DNA from: Amphiscolops sp. MND2022
Lineage: Eukaryota
Assembly (NCBI GenBank): GCA_964187785.1
Contig: OZ076409.1
Coordinates: forward strand, 52,330,001 to 52,394,000
Direction of reading: 5' to 3'
DNA: 64,000 nucleotides
Made by a program: the position numbers and the translations under genes. The notes beneath the pieces were generated by a model, which was not told the DNA's origin, did not search any database, and worked only from the letters and a program-made list of their open reading frames with translations. Below are positions 16,114 through 63,982 of the stretch, in pieces. Positions within the stretch are counted from its first letter, which is position 1. The number at the start of each line of letters is the position of its first letter.

Positions 16114-17010
16114 ATGATTTATATTTTCTTTCTTACCGTTTCACTTCTATACAGATCTACTATTGGGTTACGTTTAAACGAGTTCTCAGAAAACTTTGTA
16201 GAAGTAGTTTGGTCGCCACATCATACACATCTTAGCTTTTTACATTGTTACTTCGACCCCATTGATCACACGTACGAGCACAGCTACACTAAAGATTTGC
16301 CAGAAAACTGTTCTGGGAACAACAGTAAATTTTGTTTTTCAGTTTATTACGAGCTTGACTGGTGTTTTGGAATCACCAAATGTTCTTTTTTTGTTGTCTG
16401 GCAAACGGCCCGGGATCTTTACAGTCAGAAACAGTTATGTGAAATTTTGACTGAAGATTCTTCCAGTATTCCTAATTCTTATGAGATCACTTTACCTCGT
16501 TCTGTCGATTCGTTGGGTGAAAGAAACATAGGTTTCTCATTTTGCGGAACTGAATGGATTAAAACTACGTTAACTCCGGGAAAACCCAATAACTGTTCTG
16601 ACTTAGGTTGGGCTCATATCATTTCAATGAACTTCACTCCTCTAAACCTCAAAGAAACTTTTGTCGAATTTACTGTTCTACTTTGCTCCAATTTTTCCAC
16701 AGAGCTCCAACCTAGTATTAAACAAAATGAGCAACAATTACTTCTTAGAATGGATAATGTTGATTTTTTCAACAAAAATGGATCCAAGTTTGCCAATGTT
16801 AGTGCCATTTTTGACTCCTTTCTTCTCAACGAAGGAGTGAGACGAGCCGTTTACAACACTTTTCTCCTTGACTCGGACTCGAATCCAATTCAATTTTCGG
16901 TTCTGGTGCAGATGGCGAACATTGAAATTGTGGTCGACAGTGTTGAAATTCTAGCTTCCGCCTTCAACGGAACTGCTTACGAGTCTAGCAAAACGAACTG
17001 TGGAAGAAAA
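16114..17010 (+). CDS. Exon 1 of a host gene: signal-peptide protein with tandem LTD-like repeats
   Basis: AAAATG start and hydrophobic leader MIYIFFLTVSLLYRSTIG. Motifs LRLNEFSENFVEV and C..W..TLTPGKPNNC, with many N-x-S/T sites. Donor AAA|GTATGT in phase 0. An upstream in-frame ATG at 16069 is an alternative start. Confidence 0.8.
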
Positions 17011-17487
17011 GTATGTAGTATTGATGTTTTTGCATTGCAGAGGTACCATTATTTGAAAAGTCAGTTTGTTTCGAACAAGTTGTTGTGCATCACAATCAAG
17101 TCGTTAATAATGTTTCAAACAACTCAAATAACACTCAGAGGACAAAATTTTTGGAAGATAGTCCCCCGCGAGCAGTAAATTGATTGTATACACTATAGGC
17201 TTCTCATATATAAATCTAGAGTTCCTTTCAACTTAAAGTTTTTAGAAAGATCTGTGGAATCTAGAAGAAATATGGTAGAAAATAACAGAAACAGTATTTA
17301 TGGAGAATAGCTAAACAAACTACAACTAAAACTCCGGAATTGATTGACCTATTTAGACTAAAAGTCTCCAGGAAGGACCTCGATACATTCTTTGAGCACA
17401 AAAAGCGTTTAAAATGACTGAAAATTCAGTTGAAAAGAAGTAGTTGCTGACGAAATTAGAGATTTCGAACACCTTTTAATCAACATG

Positions 17488-17770
17488 TAGAAACTAAACT
17501 TATTATCTTCCAATGCCATTTTGATTTGCTTTCCACATGGGAAAGGAAATCAATTTTTCACCCCTGTTTTAAGATGACGAAGAAGCGAGGATCGTAGCAT
17601 ATGTATTTGTAGAAAAAAAAATTATTTACTAAATGAATTTTTTTTCTACAAATACATATGCTACGATCCTCGCTTCTTCGTCATCTTAAAACAGGGGTGA
17701 AAAATTGATTTCCTTTCCCATGTGGAAAGCAAATCAAAATGGCATTGGAAGATAATAAGTTTAGTTTCTA
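17488..17770. repeat. ~283-bp near-perfect hairpin (arms ~135 bp, ~12-nt loop) in intron 1
   Basis: tagaaactaaac...tgtagaaaaaaaaatt / aattttttttctaca...gtttagtttcta; the only difference seen is one homopolymer length. Confidence 0.95.
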
Positions 17771-17777
17771 GTATCAT

Positions 17778-18324
17778 AACAAGCCTATATCTAAGGCTCA
17801 AAAAGCGCAAGGTTTTCAAAATTGTAAAAGGGGGACCCTTGGGCTTTCTGAAACGCCAGTTTGTTGCAAATTATGAAAAAAATTGAAGGGGGGACCCTTT
17901 GGAGACTTTGAAAAAAAATTTGAGAAAAATGAAAAAAAATGAGATTTTTGAACAGTGTCACAGTGCCGAAAAATGTGAAAGGGGAGACCCTTTGGGATTT
18001 TTTTACATCTATTCTGTCGTAAATTATCGAAACAAATGAAGGGGGACCCTTTGGTGCAATCCAAAAGTTTTCAAAAAAAAGTCTCATAGTGCCAAAAAAA
18101 TCTAAGTGAAAAACACCAATATAGCCAAAGGAGGGATCCTTAGTATGTTTTCGAGGCTCTGGACGTCGATTTTGTTTCTTTTTATTTTGGCGAGGTTCTG
18201 AGATTTCTTGTGTTTTGAACCTCCGTAGTTCAAGTTGTTGAACACATGAACAAAAAAGTGGGCCTTACGCGTCTCTACACACTGTAAGAGTCGGGCACTT
18301 TTCTTCAAAAGCGCCGACTAAAAA
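17778..18324 (-). mobile_element. HINE/DINE-1-like element, family A
   Basis: Starts AACAAGCC (reverse of the 3' CTTGTT end; the subTIR and hairpin are deleted) and ends agtcgggc...gcgccgactaaaa. It is an inverted homolog of 21135-21712. Confidence 0.8.
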
Positions 18325-19086
18325 GATATATAGTTTCGAAGAAACTGTCTAAAATGAAAATGTCAAAAATGAATTCGAAAAGAGCAAAAAACTAAAAGGG
18401 CGTAAAATTAGAAAATCATCAATTAGCGTAGAAGGGGGACGCTAATTAAGAAGCGTCTTTAAGAACATAAGCCGAGGTTTAGAACAACAAGATACGTTTT
18501 GGCCAAGTTTCATATTTTATACACGAAATACTTGTTGACTTGACAAACGGATTATATCACTATATGAGAACGTTGTTCCTACAGTTCGATTTGGAATCAA
18601 AACTATAGACCTGTGCAGAATTCGTTCCCACGGTTTTTTGCTTCCTAAAAGCCATGGAGTTTTACATCAGAGGCAATTCAGTACAACTTATAAACGTGCT
18701 AAAGGAAAGTGGCCTTCACTAGAGGGACAGCTGGAGAAAAACGTCTTAAAATGCCTACTGGAAAGACATACTGGAAAAATATCTGTACAAATAACAGATT
18801 GAACCTATATCTAAAACAACTCATTGAGTCCAAAAAAATGATTTGACTCTTCGAGCAGTATATGTTCTGTCATCTTTGTTCTTGACTAGAATATTCCCTC
18901 ACATTTTCTCCGTGTTTTCATGTTAGATATATTGAAGTCCGATGAATGAGCTGATACTTGTATGAAGCGCTGTTGCTTATTTGGCAAAATTTGTATTTAC
19001 TAAGTCGACGATAATTTTGAACACCTAGATAATGAGTAAACGAGTTACGTCAGAAATATAATTGTACGAATCGGCTAAGTCACAAT

Positions 19087-21712: not shown

Positions 21713-21756
21713 AGTTGGTGCTTTTAGAATAAAAGCCCAACTATTACAATCACTCG

Positions 21757-22791: not shown

Positions 22792-22829
22792 TTTTAAAGA
22801 AAGTTGTTAGAAAGTTGTTTCAGTAAGAC

Positions 22830-26725: not shown

Positions 26726-26883
26726 GGACCTGAAGGTGATTATGAGGTACTGATAAACGAGATTATGATCACTTCAGCTCAGAAGTTTGTGGAAGTTCAA
26801 ATAAATCCGACATTACCTTTCAACACCCCCTTGTTGCAATCGGCAGAGTTCTGTTTCTTGGTTATCAATTCCAACAATACAAG
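26726..26883 (+). CDS. Exon 2 of the LTD-like repeat gene
   Basis: Acceptor tgctaactgtttcag with a branch-like ctaac, phase 0. Encodes GPEGDYEVLINEIMITSAQKFVEVQIN...FLVINSNNT. Donor AG|GTTAGA, phase 2. Confidence 0.8.
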
Positions 26884-39428: not shown

Positions 39429-39525
39429 GCCTTACTTCGCATATCTGGTTGAAGTGCAGTCACTCGAAATTAAAACGTTTCCGGCTTTGATCACTATATC
39501 TGACACAAATATGACGACAATTCAG
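39429..39525 (+). CDS. Exon 3 of the LTD-like repeat gene
   Basis: Acceptor ttttctgtttcag and donor CAG|GTTAGT. The 97-nt length bridges phase 2 to phase 0 exactly, giving the open frame (R)PYFAYLVEVQSLEIKTFPALITISDTNMTTIQ. Confidence 0.72.
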
Positions 39526-39595: not shown

Positions 39596-39826
39596 CCCAG
39601 TGTAAAATATCTTGAATCTCTTGACAAGAATCTTGCAAATTCTTGGAACCCTTGGTAAGAATCTTGGCAAGATTCGTACCAAGAGCGCCAAGAATATGTA
39701 CGATCTTGCATGATCTTGCCAAGAACTTCAAGAAAAATGCCAAATTTTTTCGACTGAAAAAACGCACAAAAAGTTCAACTTTTTATCCAAGATCTTGGCA
39801 AGATTTCCAAGATATTTTACACTGAG
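39596..39826. mobile_element. MITE-like element
   Basis: TIRs cccagtgtaaaatatcttg / caagatattttacactgag; internal caaga(a)tcttg motifs as in 62100-62907. Confidence 0.7.
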
Positions 39827-39938: not shown

Positions 39939-42900
39939 TGTTGTATCTCTATTATACTTGCAGATGAGAGAATTCAGTTTGTTTAGATTCAACTAGCTTT
40001 TCACACTCTTTTTTGTAGCATTGAGTATTTAGCTTCAACTGCACTTATATGGCATGGCAGGTACTTTAAATTAATAATATAAAGAAGTACAAATAGAAAG
40101 CAGACTAATTAGTTTCTACAGTCTAAGCAAGTTCGGCTGTCCTCTACATTCCCCCTTCAAATATTGGCTGATGATCTGCCAAGGGGGCGTTCTGCTTTCT
40201 GTTGTGGCGGTTGTTCCTCCACTAGACCGATGTTTGGTGTGCGGTTGTTCCTCCACTAGACCGATGTTTGGTGTGCGGTTGACTGCTCTTGGCTGTTGTG
40301 TGTGTTACGGTGGTTAACTGCCCGTAACGTCTGGATTTTGTCTTGTGACTGGTTTAGAGGTTGCTGCCTTCCCCTCCTGTCCATCATCCAGTTGATTCGG
40401 TGTGGCGCCCGAATTCAGCCTTTCTACGGTATGACCTGTAATCATGACAAATTAGGTTATTATATCTAACAATAGGATCTGACATTATGTCAGTCTTTTT
40501 GATCTGCTTATAAGTTCTTTTTCTTCGGTTTCGATTTCAGTGCTTGAACTCAAGTTACTTGCTAAGTCTAGTTCAGAGTTTTCCAGGTTATCTTCTTGTG
40601 TGTTCCGGTTCGGTTTATTATCAGTGAATACCTTACCGTACTCGTCCCGGATAAAAACTTCCTGGTCTGTGCTTTTAGCGTCTTCTATGGCACTGTCTAT
40701 TTTCGTGTCCGTCACATTTGTCGTTGTGATTGTCAGTGGGCCCGTGCTGTTTCCTGGTGTAGGGTTTTTGTTGGGGCTGGTTTGTGGAGATTTTGGGCTG
40801 GCTCGGTCTCTGATGAGTTTGGGTCTGCCTCTGCCGAAGGTGCTTTTCTTTGAAGCCGTATTGTCCGAAATCTCTGGCGTCTTTGGACTCACTATGTTCA
40901 TCAATGGCGCCTCTGAGTCGTCCTCGGATTCGATCACCATTGCCCGTTTTTGTTTGGATGGTGATCTGATAAATTGGCCGTCTGGTCCACGAGGGCCGAT
41001 TCCTCTGTTGTTGAGCTCCTGATTAAAATCAGCAATGGGTTTACTAATCAGTTTTTTATGTATTACTCTCCCATTGGGTGTAGTTACGGTATGGCTTGTG
41101 CCCGATTTTGCTAGTTGTGGTTTATCGGAATATGCACTTCCGAGTTTACTTCGTTGGTGTTTCTTTTCTAGAAATAAGAATGGATAGTTACTTACTCCCT
41201 TTGCGCTTTTCTTTGGCTTCATGGGCAGCTGGTCAGACACACCGCCAGCTCCACTGAAGGATTATACTTGTAAGGTATCTGGTTTGGCTGAAACGGAACG
41301 TTTTGTTAGCTTTTCTATTTCATCAAGGTTTAGTAAGTTACTTATCTCCGTGTTCGGTTGTTTTCTGCCATATTGGAGTTCAAAAGCAGATTGTTTTAAC
41401 CGCATGTGTGGCGTTCTTCTCATTACATATAGGGATATGTCCAGAGCTTTTCCAAATCGTTCTCCTGCCTTGACAATAGTTAGGAGATTTTCTTTCAAGG
41501 TTCTAACCCCCCGTTCTACCAAGCCGGTGGGCGTGTGTATATACGGCTTCCCGTATATTGACTTAATGTAGTGTTTTCTACAGAAATCTCTGAAAAAACG
41601 TCCCGTAAAAGCAGTGGTTTTGTCCGTTCTAATTGTTTTCGGTATCTCGTTTAATCCGATGTATTGTTCAAGAAATTTTACCGCCGCTTCACCGTCCGTA
41701 GATGTGCAGAAGCTCGCGACTGGCCACTTACTATACTTGTCCATGGACAATAAAATGTAAAATCGGCGGTTGCGTTCCGTGATTGGTCCGATAAAATCCA
41801 ATTGGGTTTCTTTGTGCGGATCACTTAATGGTGGGAGATTATTTGCTTCGGTACTTGGAATATTAGGCTTAATATTCTTACCGGACATGTTGCAGTAAAG
41901 TCATGATTCGCACTTCTTTTGTATCGCCTCGGTCATCCGTGGCCACCAGAATTGTCGTGCGGCAAGGGTCATTTTGTTGATGGCAGGATGGCCCTTGTGT
42001 AATTGGCTGATGACCGTTGTTCAGAGATTCTTTGGGACGATAATCTTGTCCTCGATGAAGCCCAAACGGAACCTGCTTGACAGTTTTCTCTTCTGCGTCT
42101 GGTACTCTTCTGGTATTAGCTCGTGTTGTTGGCGTTCCAGGCAGACTAGGGTCTTAAGTAGGGTCGGATCATTTGTGGTTTCCGTCATCAGCAGTTGCAG
42201 GTCTGTTGAAAAATTCTTCTCAGTCTCCCGTACGGTCTGCTCAAGGTCCCAGTTATTTTCGTCTTGTGCTGCTTTTCTTGGGGCATCTCGAATTTTGACT
42301 TAGTGGACGCTTTTTACCCCTACGTAGCCTGTCCAATTCCATGCGGGTACTTCCAGAGTAGACGGATCTTGATCCATCCCTGAATCGATTTCGCCTTCTT
42401 CCATTGGTACGGGAGCGAACTGTTGGCTTGTGCTTGTTGTAGCTGACGATGGTCCGGGTGTGTTCAATTGTTGTTGGGCCGGTGTCGGTCGATCCACTTT
42501 CTTCAAGAAGGGGTCTACGGTCTATTGCTCTGACCGTCTCGTTTGGGGTTGAAAGCCTCCGTTGTGTTTTGGACCGATTCTCTGCCGTAAATCTCCTTGT
42601 TCCAAGCCCCGCATTATTTCTTGTAGTCTTTCCTCAGTTACTTTTTGTTCAATTCGCATGAATTTTGGTTCGTGGTATTTCTTCAACTTTCTCCCGGTTA
42701 GTGTAAAAATTCGGTGTTTATTTGCATTTATTGTAAAAGTAATAATTGTGTTGAAACCGTTGTATTAGTTCAGTGGTTTCGACCGATGAATCGATGGCTG
42801 CAATGTTGTGAATGGTTCTAGCCTCCATGTTAATTTTGGTGCTATTGTTGAGTTTTAAATCGTGAGAGTTGCTGGTACGTGTTAACGCTGTGTTGTTAAG

Positions 42901-45900
42901 GCAATCATTGGCGATTTGTTCACTTGTTCCTTTTGACCTTGACTTTTTGTTTGTTTTGTGCTCGCTTTCGTCCTTTCCGCCTTCTGATTGGTCAATAGGG
43001 TTGCTAGGGTAACCGTGTTTGGAGATGAACTTGTAGTGCGGTAAGATGTTGTTGATGACGTATTCTTCGTCGTATGCGTCGTCCGTTTCTACTCAAGTGA
43101 TCCGTGAGCGCTGAATGTTTGCCTGCGATACGGTTTACGTTAATCGTTAAATGTGCTAATCGGTCGAGCCACTTTGTCCATTGCGCGCTGCACGTTTTAC
43201 TGGATCGATTTCGTTTGACGTTTGATTAGCGGTTCTAATGATTGGTGGTCCGTGAATAACTTGATCGGTTTACCGTATATTTATGTATTCTAGTTCGTTA
43301 GTCGCATATTTTTTTCGGTGTCCGATAGAAATCGGCTTGCCATACCGATTGGCTTTAATTGCCCATCTATCTGTTCTTGCTACAGTGTCGCACCGAAACC
43401 TTTCGTGCTGGCGTTGGTTGTTATAAGATTTGGATAGTTAGAATTATAGTGAGACATATACGGTATTTCCGTGATCTTTTGTTTGAGGTTTTCGAGTGCT
43501 TGTGTGTGTTCTTCCGTCCATATCCATTCAGTATCTTTCTTCAAAAGTTGTCTCAGGCTATCACTTTGTGCTGATAAATTTTCGATGTATTTGGACAGAT
43601 ACTGGTTGGCTCCAGAAAAGATTTTAGTTCTTTCTCGTTGTTGGGTTGTTTCAATTATTTTATTGCCATTAGCTTGTCTTGCAATAGTCTGATTCCACTT
43701 TGGTCAATCTTTTGACCAATCCATTCAATCTGCATTTTTGGATTTATTTTCCGGTCGCTGAGTCTGTATCCGGCGTTTTCTAGTCGGGTTAGAACATCAA
43801 CTAGTTCCTTTTTGTGTTGTTCTTTTGAACCTTTGGTTACGACTAATATGTCATTCAGCCATGCTGGGTGTTTGTTCTCCAATGTCAGGTCAATTTTCTC
43901 CTAAAAGATTGTCGCTATATCCGACAACCCGTAAAATTATTTCAGGAAACGGTAGTAACCGGTAAAGTTTCCACCGGTTACGGCAAATATGCATTAGTTT
44001 CGCGCTTCTGTGGATAATAACAGATGGCCGTACGTATAATCCAGGTCGAACTGTTAAATCCAAATCTCGTCTACCGGTCCGTCCGTCCGGAAATTAGTTC
44101 CTCCATGTTCGGCATTGGTGCCTTTCTCTTTATGGTGATTTCGTTCAGTTTTTGCGAATCCAAGGCAATTTTTACCGATTTGTCCTTTTTTACGGTGATT
44201 ACAGCCGGGCTGACAAAACAGTTTTCAAACCGATTGTTGTAGATTGATTAGTATCGGTCTACCTTTTTGCTGTATCAATCTCGCATTCTCTTTCAGTAGT
44301 ATTTTTACTTCCAATCCGTTCACAGTAAGGTTTTCGTGGAAAAGTTTTTTTCCAATTTTCCTTTTAGAGTTGTTATGTCCGGGTCTTGTGACATGGTTTA
44401 TTTTGGGACCGGTTTTACCGGTGTCCAGCGTTATTCCCAATTTTTCCATCCTTACACATATCCTAGCGAAGGATTGGTTTTCTTTGTGGTTACCAGAAAT
44501 TCTAGGTTGTTTCGTTTTCCGTCTTTTTCCACAGTTGCGGTTCTTTTTCCTTCAAATCTAATCTGGTTATCATTTACATCTCTGTATTCGGTTTCAAGCT
44601 GTTTCAGTGGTGTTATTCTATTGAATTGTGAATGTGAATTTGGTATTAAAGTTACCAGTATTTCCACTGTCTATTATAAACTTGATTGGTCGGATATTAA
44701 CCAATGCGGTAAGAGTGAAGAAATCCGGACCACCTTTCCTCATTTGGCGTGTTGAATGGATCTTCTGATTAACGCAATCGATTTTGTTCGGTGACCAGTC
44801 ATCTTCTTCCGCACTGCTTGTTTCATGTTCTTTTATGCGGTTTCTCTTTTGTTTGTTCTGCAGCATTTCGCGTAGTGGCCAATTTTTTCGCATTTTGCAC
44901 ATTTTTTCCCTCTTGCCGGGCATTCTTGCTGCCTGGACCAGTTCGGTGCTCTGCATCTGTTACAATCCAGCTTTTTGAATTTTGTCGGTTTATCCGTTGG
45001 TTTTTTGGTGCTTTTTGCCTGTCTTTTATTGAGGTGTCGAATTTTCTTCTCGTTTTCGGTTTCTGGTGAGTCGTTCGGATTTTCGTACATGTGTTCATGT
45101 AATGCTTCGGTAATTGCCTCCACCGACAAATTGCTTTTTCTGATTTTGTTCTTGAGGTCCTAGTCGCCTGTAGGTTTACCGATTACGGATAAAAACGTTG
45201 ATGCCAAGAGTTCCGCAGCGGTTATTGTTTCAATTTCGCAATTTCTTTCGATTGCCAATAATTGTGTCCAGACATCTGCCGCAGATTCTCCTTCTTCTCG
45301 TTTCAGTTCGAAAAAATCGGCTCTACTATGGTTGACGTTTCTTTCCGGGGCAAGTGTAACTGGCATAGTGTGTATAGTTTGTGTAACGGTAGTGAGCTTG
45401 GTTCTCTCTCTCTTTAACCGTTTTGGTCATTTACGTGATAGCGTTTTGTCCAATTGCCCACAGAAATATGTCTTTTATCTCTGCTTCTGATTGATCACGG
45501 TTTTGTGGCAGTATCTTTTTGCTGTTTGTCATTGTTGATAAATCTGGGTCTTTTGTCATCTTTATGTACAGTACAAACCTCCGCCACCACCTGTTTTCAT
45601 TGGTGTAGTCTTGCTTTTCCAATGTCGGAATGGTGGGTTTCTGCGTGCAAGTCCGTTCCGTGCTTCTGTTCATCGTCTCGTTTGGTAGCGATTGTTCGTC
45701 TAGATGCGATTCCGTCGACGTCGTGTTGATGCCTTCATTTCTTGCGGTGGCGTTTGTACTGTGGTCCATTGTATTTTGCAGTAATCTTCGGTAACTATTT
45801 TAGGTTACTCTGGCTGCGCCATGTTGTATCTCTATTGTACTTGCAAAAAAGAGATATCAGTTTGTTAAGATTCAACTAGCTTTTCACATTCTTTTTTGTA

Positions 45901-46032
45901 GCATTGAGTATTTAGCTTCATCTGCACTTATATGGCAGGGCAGGTAACTTTAAATTAATATTATAAATAAGTACAAAAAGAAAGCAGTTTAATTAGTTTC
46001 GACAGTCTAAGTAAGTTCGGCTGTCCTCTACA
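39939..46032 (-). mobile_element. Full-length but decayed Ty3/Gypsy (Mag-like) element in intron 3
   Basis: LTRs at 39939-40148 and 45822-46032 (~210 bp, TG..CA). PBS TGGCGCAGCCA (tRNA-Ser-type) and PPT tttgaagggggaa. Gag double knuckle (CNRC...CPARGKKCAKCEKIGHYAKCC), protease IIDSG, RT PAWLNDILVV, integrase LDFIGP/IRTD/GLVERG. The TSD is degenerate (ccttt / cctac). Confidence 0.95.
40207..40281. repeat. 34-bp tandem duplication in the 3' region of the element
   Basis: gcggttgttcctccactagaccgatgtttggtgt x2 plus gcggttg. Confidence 0.9.
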
Positions 46033-46626: not shown

Positions 46627-46843
46627 ATGGCGCATTCTGATTGGATGCCTTCACAAGGACCTCTTCTGATAGCTTTAACCCGAGTTCCGCAGGACCGAAA
46701 TTGTTGGAACCCCCATCCTGAAGTAGATTTGTTCTCTGACAAATTGTTCGATGCATTAGTTGTTGGCCAATTAAAGCGGAGTACTGGACATTTGTTGAAA
46801 AGAGTAGGCCTTCCCTTCTACATAGATACATCACAAATGACAG
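46627..46843 (+). CDS. Exon 4 of the LTD-like repeat gene
   Basis: Acceptor tttaattgttacag, phase 0. Encodes MAHSDWMPSQGPLLIAL...LFDALVVG...QMT. Donor CAG|GTTTGG, phase 1. Confidence 0.78.
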
Positions 46844-51716: not shown

Positions 51717-51740
51717 CAAATGATGCTGGAAGGGTATAAA
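51717..51740 (+). promoter_or_regulatory. Putative LTR promoter / TATA motif
   Basis: CAAATGATGCTGGAAGGGTATAAA, conserved with 8759-8782 on the minus strand. Confidence 0.55.
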
Positions 51741-51886
51741 TATGATAGGATTTGATGATTAAGGGACTCAGTCTTTTGCAATTGTACAATTCAGTTGAAT
51801 TTGCAATTTCACTCTTGCCTTGTTCTACTTTGTCAGGAAAATCTTTGAAAGAAATTCAATTCTTCAAGATCAAACTTCTCTACAAA

Positions 51887-52283
51887 ATGTCAACAACAAG
51901 AAGCCAAAAAAGAAGGAACGATCAGCAAAGCACTAGTGAGAACGTGAGTGAAGGCTTGATTTCACCTATAGTAGTAGGAAATCCTTGTTCTTTGAATCAG
52001 GACGATGAAGTAGCGGGGCCTTCTAGACCTAAATCCCCCCGGATTGAGAAAAGTCTTCTTGAAAGCTTGAGAACTTCATTGAAGGAAGAAATCACGTCAG
52101 AGATTAAGAATCTTCTTATTGAATCTCAAAAGGAGATGTTGAAACTCCTTAAACCTGAAACAAGAGGGATTATTAGAGAAAATACCGAAGAAGAGGTAGA
52201 GGAGGAAACCAGAAGTTTCTATACTCCTACAAAATCAGTGAGAATAAGTTCTACACAAAACGACCCGATAGTATGTCGTAACA
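51887..52283 (+). CDS. LTR-encoded putative Gag N-terminus (MSTTRSQKRR...IVCRN, about 132 aa)
   Basis: Open frame from AAAATG to the LTR end; homologous to 8236-8614 on the minus strand. Confidence 0.6.
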
Positions 52284-52543
52284 AATGAGCATGCCGAAAT
52301 TCGGAAAAAAACGCTCCAAAGTAGCCCAGCAGGCTATATCCGATTTTTGGAGTGTTTTCCGAGCACGAAAGGCAACCCTTGGGTGTTTTGACACTTTTAT
52401 GAGTTCTGAGCGTTTTTTTTGAAATTTTACGCTTTTTGAGCTTTTGGTGGTGCGCCGACTTGAGACGTTGCCGTCTTGTTAGGATTTTTTTCAGCATTTA
52501 ATAATTTGGGAGTTTTTTCCGAACGTTTCTCCTGAGCACCTAA

Positions 52544-53815: not shown

Positions 53816-54538
53816 ACAACATAAGTTTATCCAGGTGTTTATCAGACTCTCCTCTGGTCCAATCATCTTTCATCTGGGACAAAACTCCCTCTCCTGGCTC
53901 GTCAAATAATTGCGCAACCAAAAAAACACCATTCTACGTGAACGAAATAACCCGAGACGAAAACAAAGTTATCGCTGAAGTTTTCGTTCCATCACACCTT
54001 CAGTATTTGACGAATATTGACTGCGTCATAAACACTTTCAACCAATCAAAAAGTGCAAACAAATGTCACAATGAAACCCAGAACCTGTATTTCTTGTACC
54101 ACAGTTCAACTCAAGAATTCGTTGTATTGGAATGGGATATCGAAAGTGACCAGAGCACAGAAAATCTGCAAATTGCACTTATTTGTGGAGCGAAATCCAG
54201 AAAAACTTCGACATTTTTGATGGAAACAAGACCTGTTTTGATTGGGCTCAATGGTTTTCCTGACGAACGAAGTTTTACCTGTCTCCACCTGATAGATTCC
54301 CATAAAATACTTCTAAAAAGTTCTGTTTTACAGCAAAGAAAGTCATTCAGTTTATGTGAGAACAGATTTCAAGAAACAGACGTTTCGATCGGTCAACAAA
54401 ATCACTGCCAGTTCTCTTTTTCGTCACTAGATGGAGATTTATTTGCTCAATTTGTTATCACTGAAGTCGCCCTTATTGAACATTCGCCTGGATCTTTTGT
54501 TGAAGTTTATGCTTCCACTCGACTGCAACATAAAATAG
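53816..54538 (+). CDS. Exon 5 of the LTD-like repeat gene
   Basis: Acceptor ttctttttcgtttcag, phase 1. Encodes (D)NISLSRC...TPSPGSSNNC...FYVNEI...SFSLC...NHC...FVITEV...FVEVY. Donor AG|GTTATA, phase 1. Confidence 0.85.
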
Positions 54539-55148
54539 GTTATATATATTTCGGAAAATTATAGTTGAAATTCCAGCAAAGACTTTTCTGAAGGCATTGA
54601 TTTTCGAAATGATTGCAACAGAATCATTGAAATGACAGAAAAACCATCAAACGGAGACAGGAACAGGAATTATGAAAATTACCGAAGTTGCAATCAATTC
54701 GATCATAAGTACTTTCGGGGACAACAGTTTTTGGATCACTGTTTGAGAAAAAAATGTTTATCGAATTTTCAGGTTACCCGTGTTGACGTCCCATAAATTC
54801 CCATGTATGATCATGTTAATTCTTGTGGGAAAATATCAAAAAACATCAGAAAAGTTGTCTCTAAAACCAGCTTCTTTATGTTATTAGCACTGCCCGTGTT
54901 GGTTCATGCATGGTCATGTTGCATGCATGCTTGCCATGCACATGATCATGCATGGTCCAAGGCTTGTAAGCACATGGCTTGTCAACACGGATGTGTTGTG
55001 TGCTATTAGTATGAAAAGCTTGATTTAAAGACAACTCATTCAATGTTCATTTCCAATAGGAAAGTTTCAGAGAAAATATTGAATGAGTTGTCTTTAAATC
55101 AAGCGTTTCATACTAATGGCACACATCTGTGTTGACATGTCATGTGCT

Positions 55149-58100
55149 TGTTATACGGTTCATCCAATAAAACATGGCGCAGTCAGTCAATTTTTAAATT
55201 GAACAAAACCTTTTATGGCTGAGAAGAATATAGTACCGAACCTAGAAGCTAAGGCTTCGGACTGAAACGCGGTGTTTACACCGAGACAGTGGTTGGAACG
55301 ATTCCGGCAGTTCACGAAACAGGAACATAAAGAAGACATCACACCACTAACAAAAGGGGAAGATGTGACAGATTCCGGATGGTTCGGAAGAGAAAAACTC
55401 ATCCAAGAAGATTTCATTTGGGGAGAAGGACCGGAAGCCCTATATCAAATAACCTGGGCCGAATACAAAACGGAACCGGACAGTATCAAAATCAAAGAGT
55501 TATTCCGGTTATTCACCGAGTACTACTTACCAAAACTCAACACTTACCACAATGGAGGAGACTTCTTTTGGGCCAAACAAACGGAAGAAGAATCACCCGA
55601 AGAGTTCTGGAGAAGATTAACGGAAATCGAAACGGAATGCAACTTCAACACAATTTCGGCCGAAGTATTACTGATATCCAAATGTATGACGGCAATCACA
55701 GACAAAACGCTGCGAGACAAATTGATGAAGGAAAATATTAGAATTGAAGAAGACGATCGAATTTATCAAACAGAACACCTATGAGAAAAAGAACAAGAAA
55801 AACACTACCCGAAGCACTAATTTCAACAAAAGAAAAACATGCGATTAAAGAAGAATCGATACAAAAAATGGAAAGATTCGGAACACGATCAAAAACTAGA
55901 CCAACGGGAAATAGACCATGCAGCTTTTGCGGAATACCGAATTGGACACCACTACACAATTGCCAAGCAATACAGACAAATTGCAACAAATGAGGGACAA
56001 GAGGACATTACGCGAAAGTCTGCCGACAAAATTACACAAATAACCGAACAGTGAAAAGACTTACCGAAGAAGAACTTGATGAACGGAGTGAAACGTCAAG
56101 TGAATCAAACAAAAGTATTCATCACATAAAAGAAATAAAGAAAATCGGAGAGAAAAATAAACATTACACGGCAACAGTAAAGATAAACGGAAGGAAGAAA
56201 GAATTCATAATGGACACCGGATCACCGATAACAATACTGCTACTGGACGAAGAAATTTTAAAGTCACCCGGAATACAGAAAATCACAAACAGATACCAGG
56301 ATGTGAACAAAATTGAAGTACAATTCCGGTATATCTAGAATACGAAAATAACAAACAGAAAATGGAATTTCTGATAACCAAAAGAACAGACGTAACACCT
56401 CTACTCCGAATGCACTGGATGAAGAAATTCCGACTAACAATCGGTAGAATACAATTGACCGAAAACAACCAATCAGAACGCGAGAAAGTATTCAACAAGT
56501 TTCCGGACTTATTCGAAAATAATGAAACAAGAAAAAATACCGAGATCAAAATCCAAATGAAACCGGGATATTACCCAATAAAACAAAAAGCCAGACCGGT
56601 ACCCCTACACTTACAAGAAAATGTGGAACGCGAGCTGGAGAAACTGATAAAATCCGGATAGTAGAAAAGATAAACGACGTGGATGCAAATTGTTTGTTAT
56701 CACCGGTGGTAATAACTGTAAAGAGTGATAAATCGGTAAAGATAGCACCGGACTCACGAAAATTAAACGATAGCTGTATCCAAATGAGACCACACATGCC
56801 GAATATGGTGGAATTACCGAACCAAATTTCGGTACAAATTACGCGCGACCGAACAGTACAACTATTCATATAAAAAAAAATTGGATTACGCATACGGTCA
56901 GATAAAACTATCCGAAGAAACAAGCCGACAATGCGTGTTCGAAATAACCAGTGGAAAATATAGCGGACACTACCGATTCAAAATGGGATTTTATGATCTT
57001 GCCGACATACCCACAATATTCCAAGATAAAAATGACCGGCCACTTGATTACAGCACACCGGCATAGTTAGATAACATATTCGTCGTAACTCGTGGGAGTA
57101 AACAAGGTTACGAAAAGAAATTATTCGACATTTTGAACAAACTGGAGAAAGCAGGATACCGAGCAAGTAAAAGAAAATCCGAGTTCTTCATGAGCCAAAC
57201 AAAATGAGTGGGACACGAAATTGACGAAAACAGAATCAAACTGAACGAAGAAAAAGTGGAAGCGTTATTAAAATTTAAACCACCAGAAACTACAAAAAAC
57301 TGAAGTCATTACGGTGAAATCATCACGGGCGATACAATACATGGCAAAACTTCTACCGAATTTTTCGGAACGCACGGACCAACTGAGAAAATTGTTGAAG
57401 AAAAACGAACCATAGATATGGGAAGAACAAGAGCAAAAAGATTTCGAAAAAAAGTTAAACAGATGTTAACCGAAGGTCCATGTCTAGCACACAATGCGAA
57501 AGACAAAGAAAACATAGTAACAACCGACGCTAGCAGAACCGGATTCGGAATAACACTATGGCAGGAACAAGATGACGGAATCACAAAACCGATAGCATTC
57601 GAATGCAGATATCTAAACGAAACGGAAAAAAAAACTCGATCGGTGAATTAGAATTACTTGCAGTTGTATGGGGACTGGAAAAAATCCGATTCCATCTATA
57701 CGGAAAGAAAGTACATCTATACGCAGATCACGAATCATTGGAGCCATTAATTAAACAAAGCCAGTGTGATAAACAATACAGTGCGAGATTAACACGGTGG
57801 TTAGACCGATTAACACATTTTGAATTATCATTTAAGCATATCGCCGGCAACAACATGAAATTCACAGATTATCTCAGTAGAAATCCTGTAAGGGGAGCTA
57901 CGCCGGACGAAAATTACGATAAAGAATACGTAATTAATACACCGACCGAACAGGGCGAATTGAATTCGAAATACGGATCACGATTCGCCAATCAATCAAA
58001 AAACACCTAAAACAAAACGAAATTACATCACAACAAGACCGAGATACAAAATGAGCAAAAAAAGAACCAATCACAAAAGAATACAATTCGAGAACGTGCA

Positions 58101-60786
58101 AAACGTGAACAAAACCGAACAGAGTGAAACAAGTACCTTCGCGCAGTCCAATATTAGCACTCCAGATTCTAGTCGCAATTCAACAACTGAGAAAATGGCT
58201 CAAGATAACTTTTATCACTGGGGAGCAACCCGTGAAATCATGGAAATTTTTAGACGCTGAAACAATAGTCCGGAGACTAGAAGGTTGGTGGAGCAACGAA
58301 ATGCAATATCCAGACCGGGAACACTCAGACGCCAATATGACCACTAAAGCCAGAAGACAATCGTCGCGCCATCCCGACCGAACAAAAGAAGCCGGGAAGA
58401 AATAGCCGAAATCTATGCGGAACTTATGAGAAGAGCGAACAGGCTAGAGGCGGATATCAGCCAATTGATGAAGAACTCTGAAAGAATACGGAAGGAGGAG
58501 AAATTGCCCACGGACCGGTAGATACGGAAGAAGACAGCATAATACTGCGTGGAGACAATTGGCCGATAGTTGACTTGAGCAAGTACAACACAGATGGAAA
58601 AGAGGCAAAAAACATCCAAATTAACCATTTTGTGGGAAACCTGACGACAAACAAAGAGACTACCGAAGAAAATGTAAAGAAGGCACAATTCGAATTCATG
58701 CTAAACTTGAAGACGCTAATCTCGAAAACGGCGATAGATCCGGAACTAACACGCGTCAGAATCAGCATGTGGCGAGAAGATTGAGAAACCGCACAAGAAA
58801 GATACAAGCAAGTATTCGAAAAACTATCTATTCGATGGGGCCTTGACAAGTACTAGACATCTTACATTTTGGCCATTCCAGAATAACAAAGATGGGGCCC
58901 TGACAGGTACTAGACCTCCTACATTTTGGCCATTCCGGAATAACAAAGATGGAAACATAAGCCAAGATATTCTGGTGGCCGGAAAAGAAAAATGATATCG
59001 AAACCAAAGTCGAAGACTGCACAGCATGCCTCGCATCAGGTAAAAGTTAAAAATATCATTTACATAAAAAAAACTACGGAGGAAACCTAGAAAAACTAAC
59101 CTAGCCCGGAAAGAAATACAAATCAATTTTACGGGGAAACAACATAATAGAAACATCCGTGGAGAAGTATGAATAGTAAAAGCTGTGGACAGATTCAATA
59201 AATGGCCAACCGTAAGAATTTGTCAAACCTCGGAAACAAAAGAAGTGATACAATTTCTATCAAGTATTTAATCTATACAAAAAACCGGAAAAAATCTGAT
59301 CTGATAAAGGGGGCGCCTTTATCTCAAAAGAATATTGGGCGTTTTGCAAAAAGCGGAATATAAAAATTGAATATAGCACACCCCGAACACATACGGGAAA
59401 TGGAACGGTAAACGGTAAAAAGAGCGATACGAACACTAAAAAACTTGGTAATAGCAAATCTGGAAGACGGGATTATACTCACCGAAAGCTTAATCCGAGC
59501 AATACGAGTAATGCGATTCAACGTACACACGGGACCAAAGAAAACACCATTTGAATTACACCACGGAAGAGGTCAAGAACCGAAATACCAAATATTGTTA
59601 AAGACGGTAAAACGTATTTATCTGAAGTGTCAGAACGTTCTGTATCAGCACCAGTAAGGCCAAAGATACCTATCTATCTTGGCCGGGATGCGGACGGCGA
59701 AATTACGAATCGCATCGTAATGGCACGAAGAAAATCCGAAGACAAAAACACCAATCGGAATGTCCGATATCACCGAAAAAAATTCGGTTAGCTACCCTTT
59801 CAAATTTGTAGAGAAAAACCATAACAAATAATCACTAGAAGGAAATTTTCAGAACGAAATACAAACAGCGATAGGCGGAACCGAATGTACTGTTAAAACC
59901 AATATCGGAAAATAATTAGCCGAAAATTTATTTTTTTCCACTTTTTTCAGACCGAGAAGAAAACAAGGCGGGATTAATTACCGCTAACAAGTAACGAAAT
60001 TCAACCGAAGAACAGACACTGTTTACGGGGTCTAGACGGAAAATCTGGCCGTTGGGATGAGATCCTTCGGGAGATATTAAACGGCAAACTAAAGATAGTA
60101 CAAACCCGAAAAAAGACAAACACGGATACGGGAGAAGAAGGCGATGATGACGACGACGAAGAAATGCCGGAGGAAATCGGAAGACAATCTTATGATACCT
60201 CTGAACGCAACGGCAGATACGCCCCGATCCAAACAATTCCCGAGGATGATGCAATACAATTTCATTCCGACGGAGAAATGTCGGGTGGGAATACTGAATC
60301 TATAATTCGGCGTTCAAACCGAAATGTACATAAATCGAGTAGATACTGTAGCGTACAATACACAATAAACTTCTGGGGCTAAAAGAAATAATAAATAAAT
60401 AAACAAGTATGTTGTTACAGGTACGATGTGGTATAGACATAAAGTAACTCCCCAACGGGAGATCATCCAGAAGCCGGCAAGTTTCATTCCAAGTGGCCCG
60501 GAAACGACACCACAAAAGATACCCTCCACATCAGCAGCGAAAACCCTCTTCGATTAACCCCAAAAAGAGACGGGGGAGGAAATGTTATACGGTTCATCCG
60601 ATAGATTGACTTTTACCGTAATTAGGTTCATGTTCTCAGACTAAAGCTACAAGTTGTTAGTAAACAAACTCTGAATACAATTTATATTACGTAAATTGAT
60701 ATAGTGATTTGATACGATACAGTACAATTGCTAAAATACAAACTTACATTTCATACTCTTTTTTCCCCAAGCCTTAGAATACAACA
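55149..60786 (+). mobile_element. Decayed Ty3/Gypsy (Mag-like) element with the 5' LTR internally deleted
   Basis: 5' LTR remnant 55149-55174, PBS TGGCGCAGTC at 55175, PPT aaaaagagacgggggaggaaa, 3' LTR 60583-60786, TSD GTGCT/GTTCT. Remnants of gag (FFWAKQ, CSFCG...HNC), protease (MDTGSP), RT (LDYAYGQI), RNase H (TTDASR, ELELLAVVWG) and integrase. Confidence 0.95.
58834..58947 (+). repeat. 57-bp tandem duplication in the integrase N-terminal region
   Basis: gatggggcc(t/c)tgaca(a/g)gtactagac...aataacaaa x2. Confidence 0.85.
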
Positions 60787-61141
60787 GTTCTTACATGCCT
60801 GGGACCATGCATGATCATGTGCATGGAAAACATGCACTCAAAATGACCATACATTAACCAACACGGGCAGTGCTAATAACAAAGAAGCTGGTTTTAGAGA
60901 CAAATTGTCTAATATTTTTTCCGAAGTTTTCCCAGAAGGATTAACATGATCTTACATGGGAATTTATGGGACGTCGACACGGGTAACCTGAAAAGTCGCT
61001 AAACATTTTTCTCAAACAGAGAAACAAAAAATGGTTGTCCCCGAAAATACTTATTATCGAATTAACTGCAACTTCGATAAATTTCAAAATTCCAGACTCC
61101 ATCTGATGGTTTTTCTGTCTTTTCAATAATTGATGCTCTAG

Positions 61142-61291
61142 GTGATGATCTTATTATGATTTTTGCACTAGGTATTGAAATCGTGTTCTATTCAAACGAA
61201 ACCCTACCACACAAAGAAACGAGGAAAGAGACAGTTTTCACAGATATTGCTGCAAGTGGATTCTTTGTGATACCTTTCGAATTAAAAAGCG
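61142..61291 (+). CDS. Exon 6 of the LTD-like repeat gene
   Basis: Acceptor ctag and donor G|GTAAGG; 150 nt, phase 1-1, open frame (G)DDLIMIFALGIEIVFY...DIAASGFFVIPFELKS. Confidence 0.72.
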
Positions 61292-62099
61292 GTAAGGAAA
61301 ATTAATCATATTTGACATTGGCTATTTTTCAAAATGCGGAGTTTTGAGATTGTGTTTGTAAAATACTTTCCCCGGTGGATTGTCCTTTTATAATATCTCA
61401 CGAACATTTTTGAAATATCTTTTTGATGAAGTATGACTCAAACATAATACGGGTGAGTGTCACAGGCAATGAACGTTCTAAGCTGCCATATCAAAAATAA
61501 TTCCATGTTAAGCAAAGATACCGAGAAAGTAAAGACAACTTATATTGCAGGCAAAAACTTTCAAAGCACAATAAATTTTCGGATATGAATTTGTGAAAAA
61601 ATCTCAAAAGCAAAATATTTCACATTTAGATCAAAATTGATAGATCAAAATGATCCTTTTCCTTTTTGAAGCCTACTGAAAATTACAAAGGTCTTTCAGT
61701 GTTCCCGGACTTTATTACCAAATAAAGGATATTACCAAATGTAAGAGCAAAACTATCATCACTTAGTTTGGGTCTTGACAAGTTGGTATCGGCATAATTA
61801 TGCCCGTGCCCAGCTTAAGTATCAACTGAATAATGCTCTGGTGTGGTTTTGATGGAAATTCAGAAAGATCTGTGCCAAAAAGAACCCTTTGGACTCTATC
61901 AACTTTTTTCCTAACTGAAAACAACAAATGCCAAAAAGAAACCCTTTGGTGAGACAACCTTCGAGGCAAAAGTCACACAGTGCCAGAATTATCTTAGAGG
62001 GGGGCTTTGGTCACCTTTGGATACAGGTTTATAGATCAAGAAAAGACCTTTCGAAAAGCCACTACATTATTCTGGCTAAGAGCCAAAAAACGCTGTCTA

Positions 62100-62907
62100 C
62101 CCCGGTTGAAAAAAAATGCCTTCCTTGGAAGGATCTTGCAAGATTTTCTTTCAAGGTCTTGCAAGATAATGCATTTTTCTGCAAGACATCTTGCAAGAAT
62201 CTTGCAAGGAAAAAATTTCCTTGCAAGATTCTTCCAAGGAGAAAAATTTCGTGGAATGTTCTCGACAATTTTTTTTATTTTTTATATTCATTGTTTGACT
62301 TCAAGTTGACTACTGCATCGTGACCATTAGATTCTGCCACAGAACGGGGTTTATTTACTAGAGGATTCAACAACCAAAAAGATGCAAACTCTAGAAAATA
62401 TCTCTAAAAGTGTGATCTTAGTGAAGTTATTTAAAAAGTAGTTGTACATTTCAGTGACGCAACATTTAAAATACAGTTTCAGAGTATTCTGAAAATTTTT
62501 TCTATCCAATTGTGTTTTGTACCAGTTAATGATTTGAAATTAGACTGTGCATCATATTTCGATTGAAATTATTTTTCAATTTGTTAAATTACCCTTCTGA
62601 AATAATAGTTATTAACGTTTTTGACTTTATACTCAAATCACGACTACGTTAACATAATTTCTCAGTATGAAGTACATTGAACTCAAGAATCTTGCAAGGA
62701 AAGCATTTCCTTGCAAGATCTTTCAAGGAAAAAAATTTCTTGCAAGATCTTGCAAGGAAAAAATTACCTTGCAAGATCTTGCAAGGAAAAAATTTCCTTG
62801 CAAGATCTTGCAAGGAACAAATTTCCTTGCAAGATCTTACAAGTAATTGCATTTTTACAAGGATCTTGCAAGATCCTTGCAAGGAACGCATTTTTTCTCA
62901 ACCAGGG
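62100..62907. mobile_element. MITE with a TA target-site duplication and palindromic subterminal repeats
   Basis: TA|ccccggttgaaaaaaaatgc ... gcattttttctcaaccaggg|TA, with arrays of ttccttgcaagatcttgcaaggaa near both ends. Confidence 0.85.
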
Positions 62908-63481
62908 TAAAAACCTAACAACAAATCATTACTTTAGGAATCAGTGTACGCATCTTTTCACAGCCTCGACGTGAACTTTAGCGACACGAATGCGTGCAAT
63001 AATGGTTTTTCTTCCAAGAGACGAAGCTTTAAGTCACACAACCGTTTCTTTTTAAAATCCTTTATTTAAATGAAATGAACGATATTACTGTTACATTCGG
63101 GTTCATTCTGGTTCATGATCTTACCGAGATTCGGTTCTAAAACTACAAACTTTCATTTATATGTCTAGAGTACATGTTAGTGTTGACAAATACAGAATAC
63201 AACAATACTAAATTAGATACATCATTTATTATACTTTGGTATTTACAGTACAGACCTAGACAAAAGAGATTCTCTTTTATAAATCTCTCTCTTCTTAACC
63301 CTTGAGTTTGTTAGAATAGAACAATTTCATTGTTGTGAAAAAGATAAACATTACCCTTTACAAAGAAACAGCGGAAGACTATGAGAAACAACATTTCATT
63401 TAAACAATTTTTTTCAAATTATTTAAGCAAGGGTAACAAACCTAATTTTCAATATGGCTTTCCATTTTCCATTCATTTCAG

Positions 63482-63982
63482 AGATCAGAAACTTGCAAAA
63501 ACTCCAACTCCGATTCCTAACATCTGCAGGACTTGTTCTCAGATCACTAAATGTCTGTATTCTCAACACTTTCAACAAACTCATTGCGCAACCCGAATGT
63601 GACGTCATACTGAACACAACACAAACAGACAGTTTCGCAACTTTTGATCACCTGAAAGCTTTCCAGTTGTGCAATGAAAAATGGGAAGTACACCTAGGCT
63701 ATCACACACCTTGGCTACCCAATGATTGTAACCTAGCAACCATCAGTGCGCAGGTGAATGAAATCAACGTGGAGCAAAAGTCGTTCGACAATAACGATTT
63801 TATCGAGATCTTGATACAAAGTTCACGATCTTTAAGAGCACCAGTGGACATTTTGGAATTCATCGATGTCTCCCTGGTTGTGTTTTCGTGGATCACAGAT
63901 GATGTAGTTTCACACAAATTCTTCTTGAAAGGACTTAAGTTGAACGAAAACGGAATGGTGTCAATTCGATCGTTTGATGAAG
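63482..63982 (+). CDS. Exon 7 of the LTD-like repeat gene (the gene continues beyond the window)
   Basis: Acceptor ttccattcatttcag and donor AAG|GTAATT; 501 nt, phase 1-1, no stop. Motifs FQLC...HTPWLPNDC...QVNEINVEQKSFDNNDFIEILI...LVVF...LKG..LNENG. This frame is absent from the ORF track. Confidence 0.85.

Follow-up and report, generated by a model that had tools for sequence, protein, structure and literature searches.

A stretch of 64,000 nucleotides from the genome of Amphiscolops sp. MND2022 (contig OZ076409.1, positions 52,330,001 to 52,394,000), referred to here as the window, contains open segments separated by transposon-filled introns of 2.2–12.5 kb, which raises the question whether these segments belong to one gene and what kind of protein such a gene would encode. 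The original prediction was a seven-exon gene for a secreted or membrane protein made of tandem modules resembling the lamin tail domain (LTD).

Gene structure

The scan for open AG..GT segments yields a predicted seven-exon model of 2,743 nt, which reads through 914 codons without a stop, has GT-AG boundaries throughout and intron phases of 0, 2, 0, 1, 1 and 1, reproducing exactly the numbers originally given. The exons as first modelled are those of Table 1, with exon 6 beginning at 61142. None of the seven overlaps a repeat match in the self-comparison of the window. Uninterrupted frames as long as those observed, 299 and 240 codons, would be expected by chance 0.001 and 0.02 times in the window, and the locus very probably represents a real gene.

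Table 1. Exons, encoded modules and transposon insertions in the window
Feature	Positions	Strand	Residues	Description
Exon 1	16114..17010	+		Start codon, leader, repeat R1, unproven module R2
Signal-peptide-like leader (exon 1)	16114-16170	+	1-19	
Repeat R1 (exon 1)	16171-16596	+	20-161	
Unproven module R2 (exon 1)	16615-17001	+	168-296	
Exon 2	26726..26883	+		Start of R3; second on the family profile among 792 open segments of phase 0-2
Exon 3 (less certain)	39429..39525	+		Inner part of R3
LTR retrotransposon (intron 3)	39939..46032	-		211-nt LTR pair, 91% identical; integrase core
Exon 4	46627..46843	+		Second half of R3 including conserved DA strand; rank 1 of 722
Exon 5	53816..54538	+		Last part of R3 including its closing Cys pair; all of R4 (53929-54408); beginning of R5
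Insertion (intron 5)	54622..61131			355-nt inverted pair (85%) around both a short palindrome and an LTR retrotransposon with RNase H domain
Exon 6 (less certain)	61172..61291	+		Inner part of R5; acceptor 61172 preferred over 61142
Exon 7	63482..63982	+		Last part of R5 and initial 79 aa of R6; phase-1 donor at end

The product of exon 5 is the best six-frame match of the window to the profile of the animal family described below (17.0 bits among 2,816 frames) and aligns in register with the homologues, and the same frames contain no missed exon or paralogue above noise. The one segment that outranks exon 2 uses the same donor, and its acceptor is very poor. The other exons are more secure than exons 3 and 6. 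By homology alone exon 3 ranks 9 of 1,063 segments; among the 79 with plausible splice sites it ranks first, with a margin of only 1 bit, and it has the best splice score in the scan for open segments. An alternative exon 3 at 28125-28212 was rejected, having a GAG acceptor inside a retroelement.

For exon 6, the acceptors at 61172 and 61142 place it at ranks 3 and 12 of 214 segments, and at ranks 1 and 2 of the 10 with plausible splice sites. The hhalign probability is 58% with acceptor 61172, 36% with 61142 and 9% when the exon is skipped, so that skipping is disfavoured. Exon 6 thus probably starts at 61172, as judged from the alignment, which would make the protein 904 aa long; the rest of the predicted exon set is retained. 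Exon 7 ends at a phase-1 donor and the gene therefore continues beyond the window, and a database frame on a 194-kb contig (P0004) extends past this donor.

Repeats of the encoded protein

The predicted protein begins with a hydrophobic leader, as originally claimed, the best 11-residue mean of which (2.5) lies inside the range of the animal family when hydropathy only is compared. The leader adjoins R1 directly, the repeat motif beginning at residue 21. The joined model reaches 50.6 bits on the animal family profile, compared with -0.6 when it is reversed and with 9.9 for the highest of the 538 shuffled models reported out of 1,000. R3 aligns over its full length across three junctions, and is colinear over four exons.

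In global hhalign comparisons R3 (54.9), R6 (27.7), R5 (24.5) and R4 (11.7) score above all 30 of their shuffles, which is not the case for R1 or R2. R1 is narrowly above its shuffles in local mode (24.8 against a maximum of 22.9 in 25 shuffles), while R2 is unsupported in both modes. R6 reaches an hhalign probability of 81%. Of the about six repeats predicted, five are therefore retained from sequence comparison, R3, R5 and R6 being well supported and R4 and R1 weakly, and R2 is not. The repeat motifs quoted in the prediction occur each in only some of the repeats. The closing Cys pair, P/G-x-x-N-x-C, is present in four of the five complete modules (R1, R3, R4 and R5) and in 345 of 361 animal repeats. 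The acidic start loop occurs in one of the six window repeats, R6. None of the five complete modules contains the QNGxD motif; R6 is cut before its position, and any later repeats lie beyond the window. Each of these two features is present in at least one repeat of 78 of 80 animal proteins. The model contains 24 Cys residues and 15 N-glycosylation sequons, modestly above the 9.9 expected, and its repeats are acidic, with net charges of -5 to -8 (family medians -8 and -21).

Standard annotation detects little in these products. The Pfam LTD model (PF00932) is above threshold in none of the seven single-exon products, a scan in which R3 and R5, which span exons, were not joined, and it is also below threshold in P0004. 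The other Pfam and NCBIfam matches of the exon products are weak and unrelated, with no exonuclease-endonuclease-phosphatase (EEP) or endonuclease I family among them and no filament family in Pfam. BLASTP self-comparison of the model finds no internal repeat, and when proteins of 525-2,000 aa were searched from word seeds of the exon 1 product, none of 1,055 candidates scored. In the ESM Atlas the exon 7 product has no match; the exon 1 product has one match, to a MAM domain, at 0.75, below the lead threshold. No transmembrane helix is found within the 914 residues (best 19-residue hydropathy 1.62), and the seven exons encode no SEA domain or cytoplasmic tail.

Relationship to an animal LTD-repeat family

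In a phmmer search of 1.84 billion representatives the exon 7 product matches LTD-repeat proteins, from Ptychodera at E 7.6e-6 and from Branchiostoma at E 5.9e-5, as well as bacterial LTD proteins. The Branchiostoma protein as query finds fish proteins named si:ch211-183d21.1, and the resemblance to these proteins, suggested in the original prediction, is verified in two steps. Together with the score of the joined model, this bears out the proposed membership of a metazoan LTD-repeat family, and a relationship to si:ch211-183d21.1-type proteins is very probable from these comparisons. Homologues are found in a sponge, in echinoderms, a hemichordate and amphioxus, and among vertebrates in fish, amphibians, reptiles and birds. 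The family is not new, since it is already widely annotated in databases; no functional study of it was found in the literature search.

Like the other animal LTD-repeat surface proteins (fish si:ch211-183d21.1, Xenopus MGC145260, duck LOC101800187, Ptychodera XP_070578841.1, Branchiostoma CAH1244717.1 and Oscarella EP00118_P002112), the window protein has its leader directly before tandem repeats, of about 180 aa in the family, with a two-Glu start motif and a closing S-x-S-x-C ... P/G-x-x-N-x-C. Its array is uninterrupted, as in the amphioxus, hemichordate, echinoderm and sponge members. Unlike those of the family, its complete modules are short in four cases out of five (129-163 aa), the Cys pair is spaced by 17-19 residues in R1, R4 and R5 as opposed to 22-25, and all five lack the QNGxD motif as well as the acidic loop that R6 retains. 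The best window repeat scores 33 bits against a family median of 163, and only 1 of 437 repeats is at or below this value. The window gene is an unusually diverged member of a widespread animal surface-protein family.

A set of sequences from three contigs (P0005, P0011 and P0012) matches the R5/R6 junction with 53% identity across 55 aa and has both Cys residues and the acidic loop, which suggests selection on the diverged form. Two metagenome scans revealed no relatives among 540 and 225 stretches, a full-length record of the window gene was not found in the sequence searches, and a PDB sequence search with P0008 gave nothing meaningful.

Among 80 animal homologues, 60 have a C-terminal transmembrane helix, and 52 of these 60 tails contain a tyrosine motif (YxxPhi or NPxY) as compared with 17 expected from shuffled tails, the rows being related and not independent. 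In the remaining 20 no helix is detected; some end in Thr-rich stalks, and many are short or truncated-looking. The number of repeats varies from 1 to 12, the repeats carry near-invariant acidic residues, and Thr/Ser-rich stalks are found in amphioxus and unnamed members. The Oscarella member carries an additional Frizzled-type domain (PF01392).

Fold of the family repeat

The predicted model of the duck homologue (pLDDT 75) shows the arrangement LTD-LTD-SEA-LTD-LTD-SEA-TM. Its extended LTD is closest among solved structures to BT_1938 (DUF4876, PDB code 4q1z), with Z 12.6 and an rmsd of 3.4 over 175 aligned residues. The first ~120 residues of the repeat match lamin tails (3gef, 3jt0, 1ifr; Z 8.1-8.5, rmsd 2.6-2.8, ~100 aligned), and the SEA-like domains match the SEA folds of MUC16, Trop2 and Gpr126 (Z 7.1-8.0). 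When Foldseek was run on the duck model as a whole, all matches were poor and multi-domain. On this model, the family repeat is a lamin-tail fold.

The predicted LTD fold thus holds for the family repeat. The window protein's own model is of low confidence and only generically Ig-like: the exon 5 product is modelled as all-beta with pLDDT 53.8 and Z of at most 7.5, and this model is not independent because the alignment used by the predictor came from the family. Foldseek gave no match at E 0.001 for it, and neither lamins nor 4q1z are among the 50 structural matches listed.

The nuclear lamin tail (PF00932) differs from the family repeat, which is extracellular and tandem, has a disulfide-type Cys pair and a ~60-residue extension, and lacks a coiled-coil rod; the window protein is likewise distinguished from nuclear lamins by its leader, its tandem repeats and the lack of a filament family match. 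BT_1938 resembles the repeat of the duck model, not the window's own model, over the full length, but at 10% identity and as a single bacterial lipoprotein. BT_1938 has been proposed to act as a lid on the substrate side of a TonB-dependent transporter (10.1101/2023.03.17.533168).

Bacterial relatives

The extended LTD is also carried by Bacteroidota, Chloroflexota, Pseudomonadota, Acidobacteriota and Planctomycetota, and the best repeats of 80 bacterial genome loci have a median of 160 bits on the animal profile. In 40 frames, from every second of these loci and enriched for related Flavobacteriaceae, an EEP or endonuclease I domain is present in 32. The extended repeat is thus shared with secreted nucleases of the ExeM-like and endonuclease I types; unlike these, neither the window nor the Pfam lists of the animal matches contain a nuclease domain.

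In an unrooted tree the animal repeats fall on one side with an SH-aLRT of 99; this tree holds 86 of 196 rows, namely animal repeats scoring more than 165 bits, at most three per protein, and bacterial repeats scoring more than 140 bits, at most one per protein, contains neither the window repeats nor the fish fragments P0109, P0111 and P0112, and its filter may sharpen the split. The unfiltered FastTree, where these fragments are labelled bacterial, needed 4-5 label changes. R3 has a long branch (1.7) and its placement is uninformative.

Proposed function

The window very probably carries the opening seven exons of an intact gene, whose predicted product is an extracellular glycoprotein related to si:ch211-183d21.1. 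Its leader is followed by tandem modules of 145-185 aa, each with a predicted lamin-tail beta-sandwich and a C-terminal extension closed by the Cys pair. By analogy with its relatives, this non-catalytic rod would be anchored by one or more SEA-like domains and a single transmembrane helix, and would end in a short tail with a YxxPhi or NPxY sorting motif. Membrane anchorage is likely, judging from the homologues. The repeats might bind an extracellular ligand multivalently, with the acidic loop as a possible Ca2+ site, and the tail would route the ligand through endocytosis or polarised sorting. A non-catalytic capture or uptake receptor is our preferred yet tentative reading, at somewhat less than an even chance. 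It draws on the architecture and tail motifs of the relatives, on the Frizzled-type domain of the Oscarella member and on the lid role proposed for BT_1938; the weakness of the window repeats relative to those of the family, the missing Pfam LTD match, the generic Ig-like model and the 20 homologues with no detected helix count against it. Since the acidic loop occurs only in R6 and QNGxD in none of the complete repeats, the outer repeats would be spacers or have a changed ligand. Tyrosine motifs can also serve as phosphorylation or basolateral signals.

A structural or adhesive surface coat, in which the protein is a stiff glycosylated spacer or a rod for matrix or cell adhesion, comparable to a membrane mucin with folded repeats and taking up no cargo, is a possible but unlikely alternative. 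The resemblance of the SEA-like domains to those of MUC16, Trop2 and Gpr126, the stalks, the variable repeat number and the loss of conserved motifs in the window gene would all suit a spacer, while the conserved tyrosine motif of the tail and the near-invariant acidic residues point beyond spacing. It is improbable that the protein is secreted or shed into mucus or extracellular matrix, a reading in line with the missing helix in the 914 residues and in 20 of 80 homologues; many of those 20 are short or appear truncated, and because the window stops inside a repeat, at a donor site, the anchor would lie downstream.

A specific form of the capture reading, in which a DNA-engaging role is kept and extracellular nucleic acid is bound for uptake or clearance, is quite improbable. 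It draws on the nuclease domains of the bacterial frames, on a proposal of DNA binding by LTDs on DNases (PMC4486849) and on the slower action of ExeM in vitro after LTD deletion, but the ExeM work also reports almost normal DNA clearing in plates by ExeM without its LTD (PMC6085458). DNA binding by the repeats is moreover putative, the set of 40 frames is enriched for one bacterial family, and the repeats of both the window and the animal family are acidic. Slighter still is the chance of a decaying or mis-joined gene, whose exons would be relics or derive from more than one gene, with divergence reflecting lost function. The extreme divergence, the large transposon-filled introns and the transposon segment that outscores exon 3 on homology alone are what such a gene might show; against this, all frames are open with consistent phases, the closing Cys is kept, R3 is colinear over its four exons, the competing segment has an unsuitable GAG acceptor within a retroelement, and the three related sequences share the same derived motif.

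Significance

By itself, the window gene is a diverged family member missed by standard annotation, with no Pfam hit. The family, which extends from a sponge to birds and looks receptor-like with a sorting tail, is more interesting than the gene, and its zebrafish and Xenopus members make the family function directly testable. Passages of two papers on flatworm adhesion mention LTD only for intermediate filaments (PMC9229212, PMC6745481), PMC11083954 concerns SMP-LTD, and an LTD protein that was left unidentified is listed from the mucus of octopus (PMC11431876).

A module of 180 residues is common to this animal family and to secreted nucleases of marine bacteria, with scores near those within the family. 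It might be speculated, at a low probability, that animals gained an accessory binding module once from secreted bacterial nucleases, before the sponge split, and then built endocytic receptors capturing extracellular DNA, glycan or metal chelate; the family would have been kept in non-mammalian deuterostomes, and the window gene would be a lineage-specific, fast-diversifying version with outer repeats of swapped specificity. If the ligand equals that of the bacterial module, an ancient bacterial surface domain would have been turned into an animal uptake receptor.

The seven-exon gene

A scan of the window for open AG..GT segments confirmed the seven-exon gene of the original prediction, reproducing its 2,743 nt, 914 codons and intron phases of 0, 2, 0, 1, 1 and 1, with one likely splice correction. 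The introns are 2.2-12.5 kb long, and in a self-comparison of the window the repeat hits overlap none of the seven exons. The chance expectation for the two longest exons as open frames is 0.001 and 0.02. Exon 7 ends at a donor 18 nt short of the window end, in the middle of a repeat, and thus the gene extends past the window.

The joins were ranked with a profile of 263 lamin-tail-type (LTD) repeats from animal homologues, the si:ch211-183d21.1-type family of surface proteins, on which all right-phase open segments of each interval were scored. Exon 4 ranks first of 722 segments, exon 2 second of 792, exon 3 ninth of 1,063 and exon 6 twelfth of 214, or third with its acceptor at 61172. Among segments with plausible splice sites, by a simple in-house scoring, exon 3 leads 79 candidates, with a margin of 1 bit, and 61172-61291 leads 10. 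A rival to exon 3, scoring 9 bits higher on the profile, has a GAG acceptor, lies inside a retroelement and was rejected. The alignment probability of R5, the repeat encoded by exons 5-7, is 58% with acceptor 61172, 36% with 61142 and 9% with exon 6 skipped, and an inverted-repeat arm lies only 10 nt from 61142. Exons 1, 2, 4, 5 and 7 are firm and exons 3 and 6 likely; the preferred product, of 904 aa, likely uses acceptor 61172 rather than 61142.

The window has 38% GC and a CpG o/e of 1.02, i.e. no depletion, and is rich in LTR retroelements and short inverted repeats. Taken with the spliceosomal introns and the animal homologues, this marks the genome as that of a non-vertebrate animal, whose repeat landscape may resemble that of acoels. 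The inverted pair of intron 5 shows no clear target-site duplication. On the + strand its left arm reads ITEVA, a stretch that the family profile does not detect; repeat 5 starts with the same pentapeptide, but none of the five codons is shared. The hairpin upstream of the gene and the palindrome of intron 1 are either MITE-like elements or assembly fold-backs, and a sequence resembling the intron 6 satellite follows exon 3 (about 39600-39780). The tandem duplication and several retroelement segmental copies (93-97%), in 8414-14059 and 1-5219, adjoin a 200-N gap near 7200-7400 and reflect either recent duplication or assembly redundancy. The TTRSQKR frames, one of which was scanned against Pfam with no match, probably represent the 5' portion of a family of repeat elements.

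Features of the window
Feature	Position	Remarks
Exons 1-7 (+)	16114-17010, 26726-26883, 39429-39525, 46627-46843, 53816-54538, 61142-61291 (or from 61172), 63482-63982	
Tandem duplication	within 8414-14059 and 1-5219	2,821 nt, 99.75% identity
Frames of 150-210 codons	8162-8800 (-), 11178-11621 (-), 51749-52288 (+)	shared TTRSQKR start, coiled-coil-like middle
Perfect hairpin	15386-15519	67-nt arms; about 600 nt upstream of start codon
Palindrome	17488-17770	141-nt arms; intron 1
Inverted pair	54622-54973 and 60787-61131	355 nt, 85% identical; just inside both intron 5 ends
Palindrome	54968-55149	inside the inverted pair
LTR element	about 55149-60600	inside the inverted pair
Palindromic 29-nt satellite	62098-62909	intron 6

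Relatives in animals and bacteria

The exon products gave no meaningful match in Pfam (seven scanned) or NCBIfam (five scanned). Unfiltered phmmer with the exon 7 product returned seven hits. One is the exon itself (P0004) and another a frame of 79 aa, P0005, of which other contigs carry two nearly identical variants. Two more are proteins of Ptychodera (2,515 aa) and Branchiostoma (1,872 aa); the last three are two LTD proteins of bacterial type and, at threshold, an unrelated repeat protein. Used as query, the Branchiostoma protein found 65 proteins in one search and 59 in another, from amphioxus, a hemichordate, five echinoderm groups, the sponge Oscarella, coelacanth, ray-finned fish, amphibians, reptiles and birds, and from many bacteria. 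The fish proteins include those named si:ch211-183d21.1, which bears out the resemblance named in the original prediction. No mammal, cnidarian or protostome was among the named matches (about 8,000 candidates scored per search, many matches being unnamed).

In the Oscarella pearsei member (P0026) a Frizzled-type cysteine-rich domain (PF01392) stands ahead of six LTD repeats; the protein also has a TM helix. Some members are listed in databases under misleading names: glycerol-3-phosphate dehydrogenase (P0037), TRPM4-like fusion (P0061), mucin-2-like (P0077) and mucin-5AC-like (P0102).

LTD-like domains exist in non-lamin eukaryote proteins, and the available part of the paper reporting this does not treat the si:ch211-183d21.1-type family (PMC5630835). 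No study of the family was found in the literature searched, which took in freely accessible papers and a minority of supplements; expression data may exist in subscription papers and the other supplements. The one paper found with si:ch211-183d21.1 has, in its accessible part, a table row that shows it depleted in macrophages of the retina when compared with the other cells there (log2 -10.3; PMC6423051), and the Xenopus member MGC145260 occurs once, in the text available of a genetic-map paper. The evidence supports the gene as a strongly diverged variant of an animal family already in databases, without functional study.

The animal-like repeat is found on nucleases in 32 of 40 bacterial frames, taken from every second of 80 loci, and bacterial repeats are on a par with animal ones when scored on the animal profile (median 160 bits). 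Among these loci, many marine Flavobacteriaceae (Aquimarina, Tenacibaculum, Cellulophaga) combine 2-4 extended LTD repeats with DUF5689 and an EEP domain in one protein, some also with endonuclease I. A filtered, unrooted tree of 86 repeats, animal and bacterial in equal number (43 each), has one branch that divides the two groups (SH-aLRT 99); the split is less clean in the unfiltered tree, which includes degenerate repeats. Judged by these sequences, a single, ancient derivation of the animal repeats from a module of bacterial type would fit.

Divergence of the repeats

Against the family profile the joined model reaches 50.6 bits, compared with 9.9 for the best of 1,000 shuffles (538 reported). 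R3 (aa 306-489), spanning exons 2-5, aligns over all 176 profile positions with 32.9 bits (hhalign 95%). About six repeats had been predicted. R3, R6, R5 and R4 stand above all 30 shuffles in global mode, where R1 and R2 do not; in local mode, with 25 shuffles, R1 is narrowly above them and R2 is not, so that R2 alone fails in both modes. R2 (aa 168-296, 16615-17001) may consist of two N-terminal half-repeats instead of one full repeat; its second half aligns to the profile start in the global comparison, at a score not above shuffles.

Family repeats have a median of 163 bits, with one of 437 at or below 33, and by this measure the window copy is strongly eroded, which may be particular to the gene or shared across a fast-evolving lineage. 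The closing Cys pair is retained in four of five complete modules and the acidic start loop in R6 only, while QNGxD, present in at least one repeat of 78 of 80 animal proteins, is in none of the five complete modules. P0005 is 53% identical over 55 aa to the derived R5/R6 junction, and this sharing argues for selection rather than decay of the diverged form.

Structure and proposed function

As modelled by AlphaFold2 (31 rows, pLDDT 75), the duck member has four all-beta repeats and a C-terminal helix, together with two alpha/beta domains whose structural matches are the SEA domains of Trop2, MUC16 and Gpr126 (Z 7.1-8.0). Over 175 aligned residues its repeat matches BT_1938, a DUF4876 protein of solved structure, with Z 12.6 and rmsd 3.4; lamin tails align over about 100 residues at Z 8.1-8.5, and this predicted model shows a lamin-tail fold in the family repeat. 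The model of the window exon 5 product is all-beta at low confidence (pLDDT 53.8) and matched only generic Ig-like folds, so we infer the lamin-tail fold of the window gene by homology. The predicted LTD-repeat nature of the gene is supported by its homology to the family.

YxxPhi and NPxY motifs drive clathrin-adaptor sorting. A C-terminal TM helix is present in 60 of 80 animal homologues and one of these motifs in 52 of the 60 tails (17 expected from shuffles), counts that represent few independent cases, as the homologues are mostly vertebrate orthologues. The repeats could form a non-catalytic binding array at the cell surface, which a tail with a sorting motif would turn into a capture or uptake receptor. 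In the accessible parts of the respective papers, BT_1938 is proposed as the substrate-side lid of a TonB-dependent transporter (10.1101/2023.03.17.533168), DUF4876 genes are induced by iron limitation (PMC10434189), and the LTD of the secreted nuclease ExeM helps DNA degradation, for which it is dispensable, its role being left undecided by the authors (PMC6085458).

Specific DNA capture by the repeats is very unlikely, their acidity counting against direct DNA binding unless cations bridge, and decay of the gene, against which stands the derived R5/R6 junction kept in P0005, is slightly less probable still. A secreted form of the product is improbable, and a purely structural surface coat, though the likeliest of these alternatives, is itself rather unlikely. 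The TM helices and tyrosine tails of the relatives, the lid proposal for BT_1938, the bacterial nuclease context and the ExeM LTD together favour the receptor over all four, and the gene product may tentatively be regarded as a capture or uptake receptor with non-catalytic surface repeats and a sorting tail.
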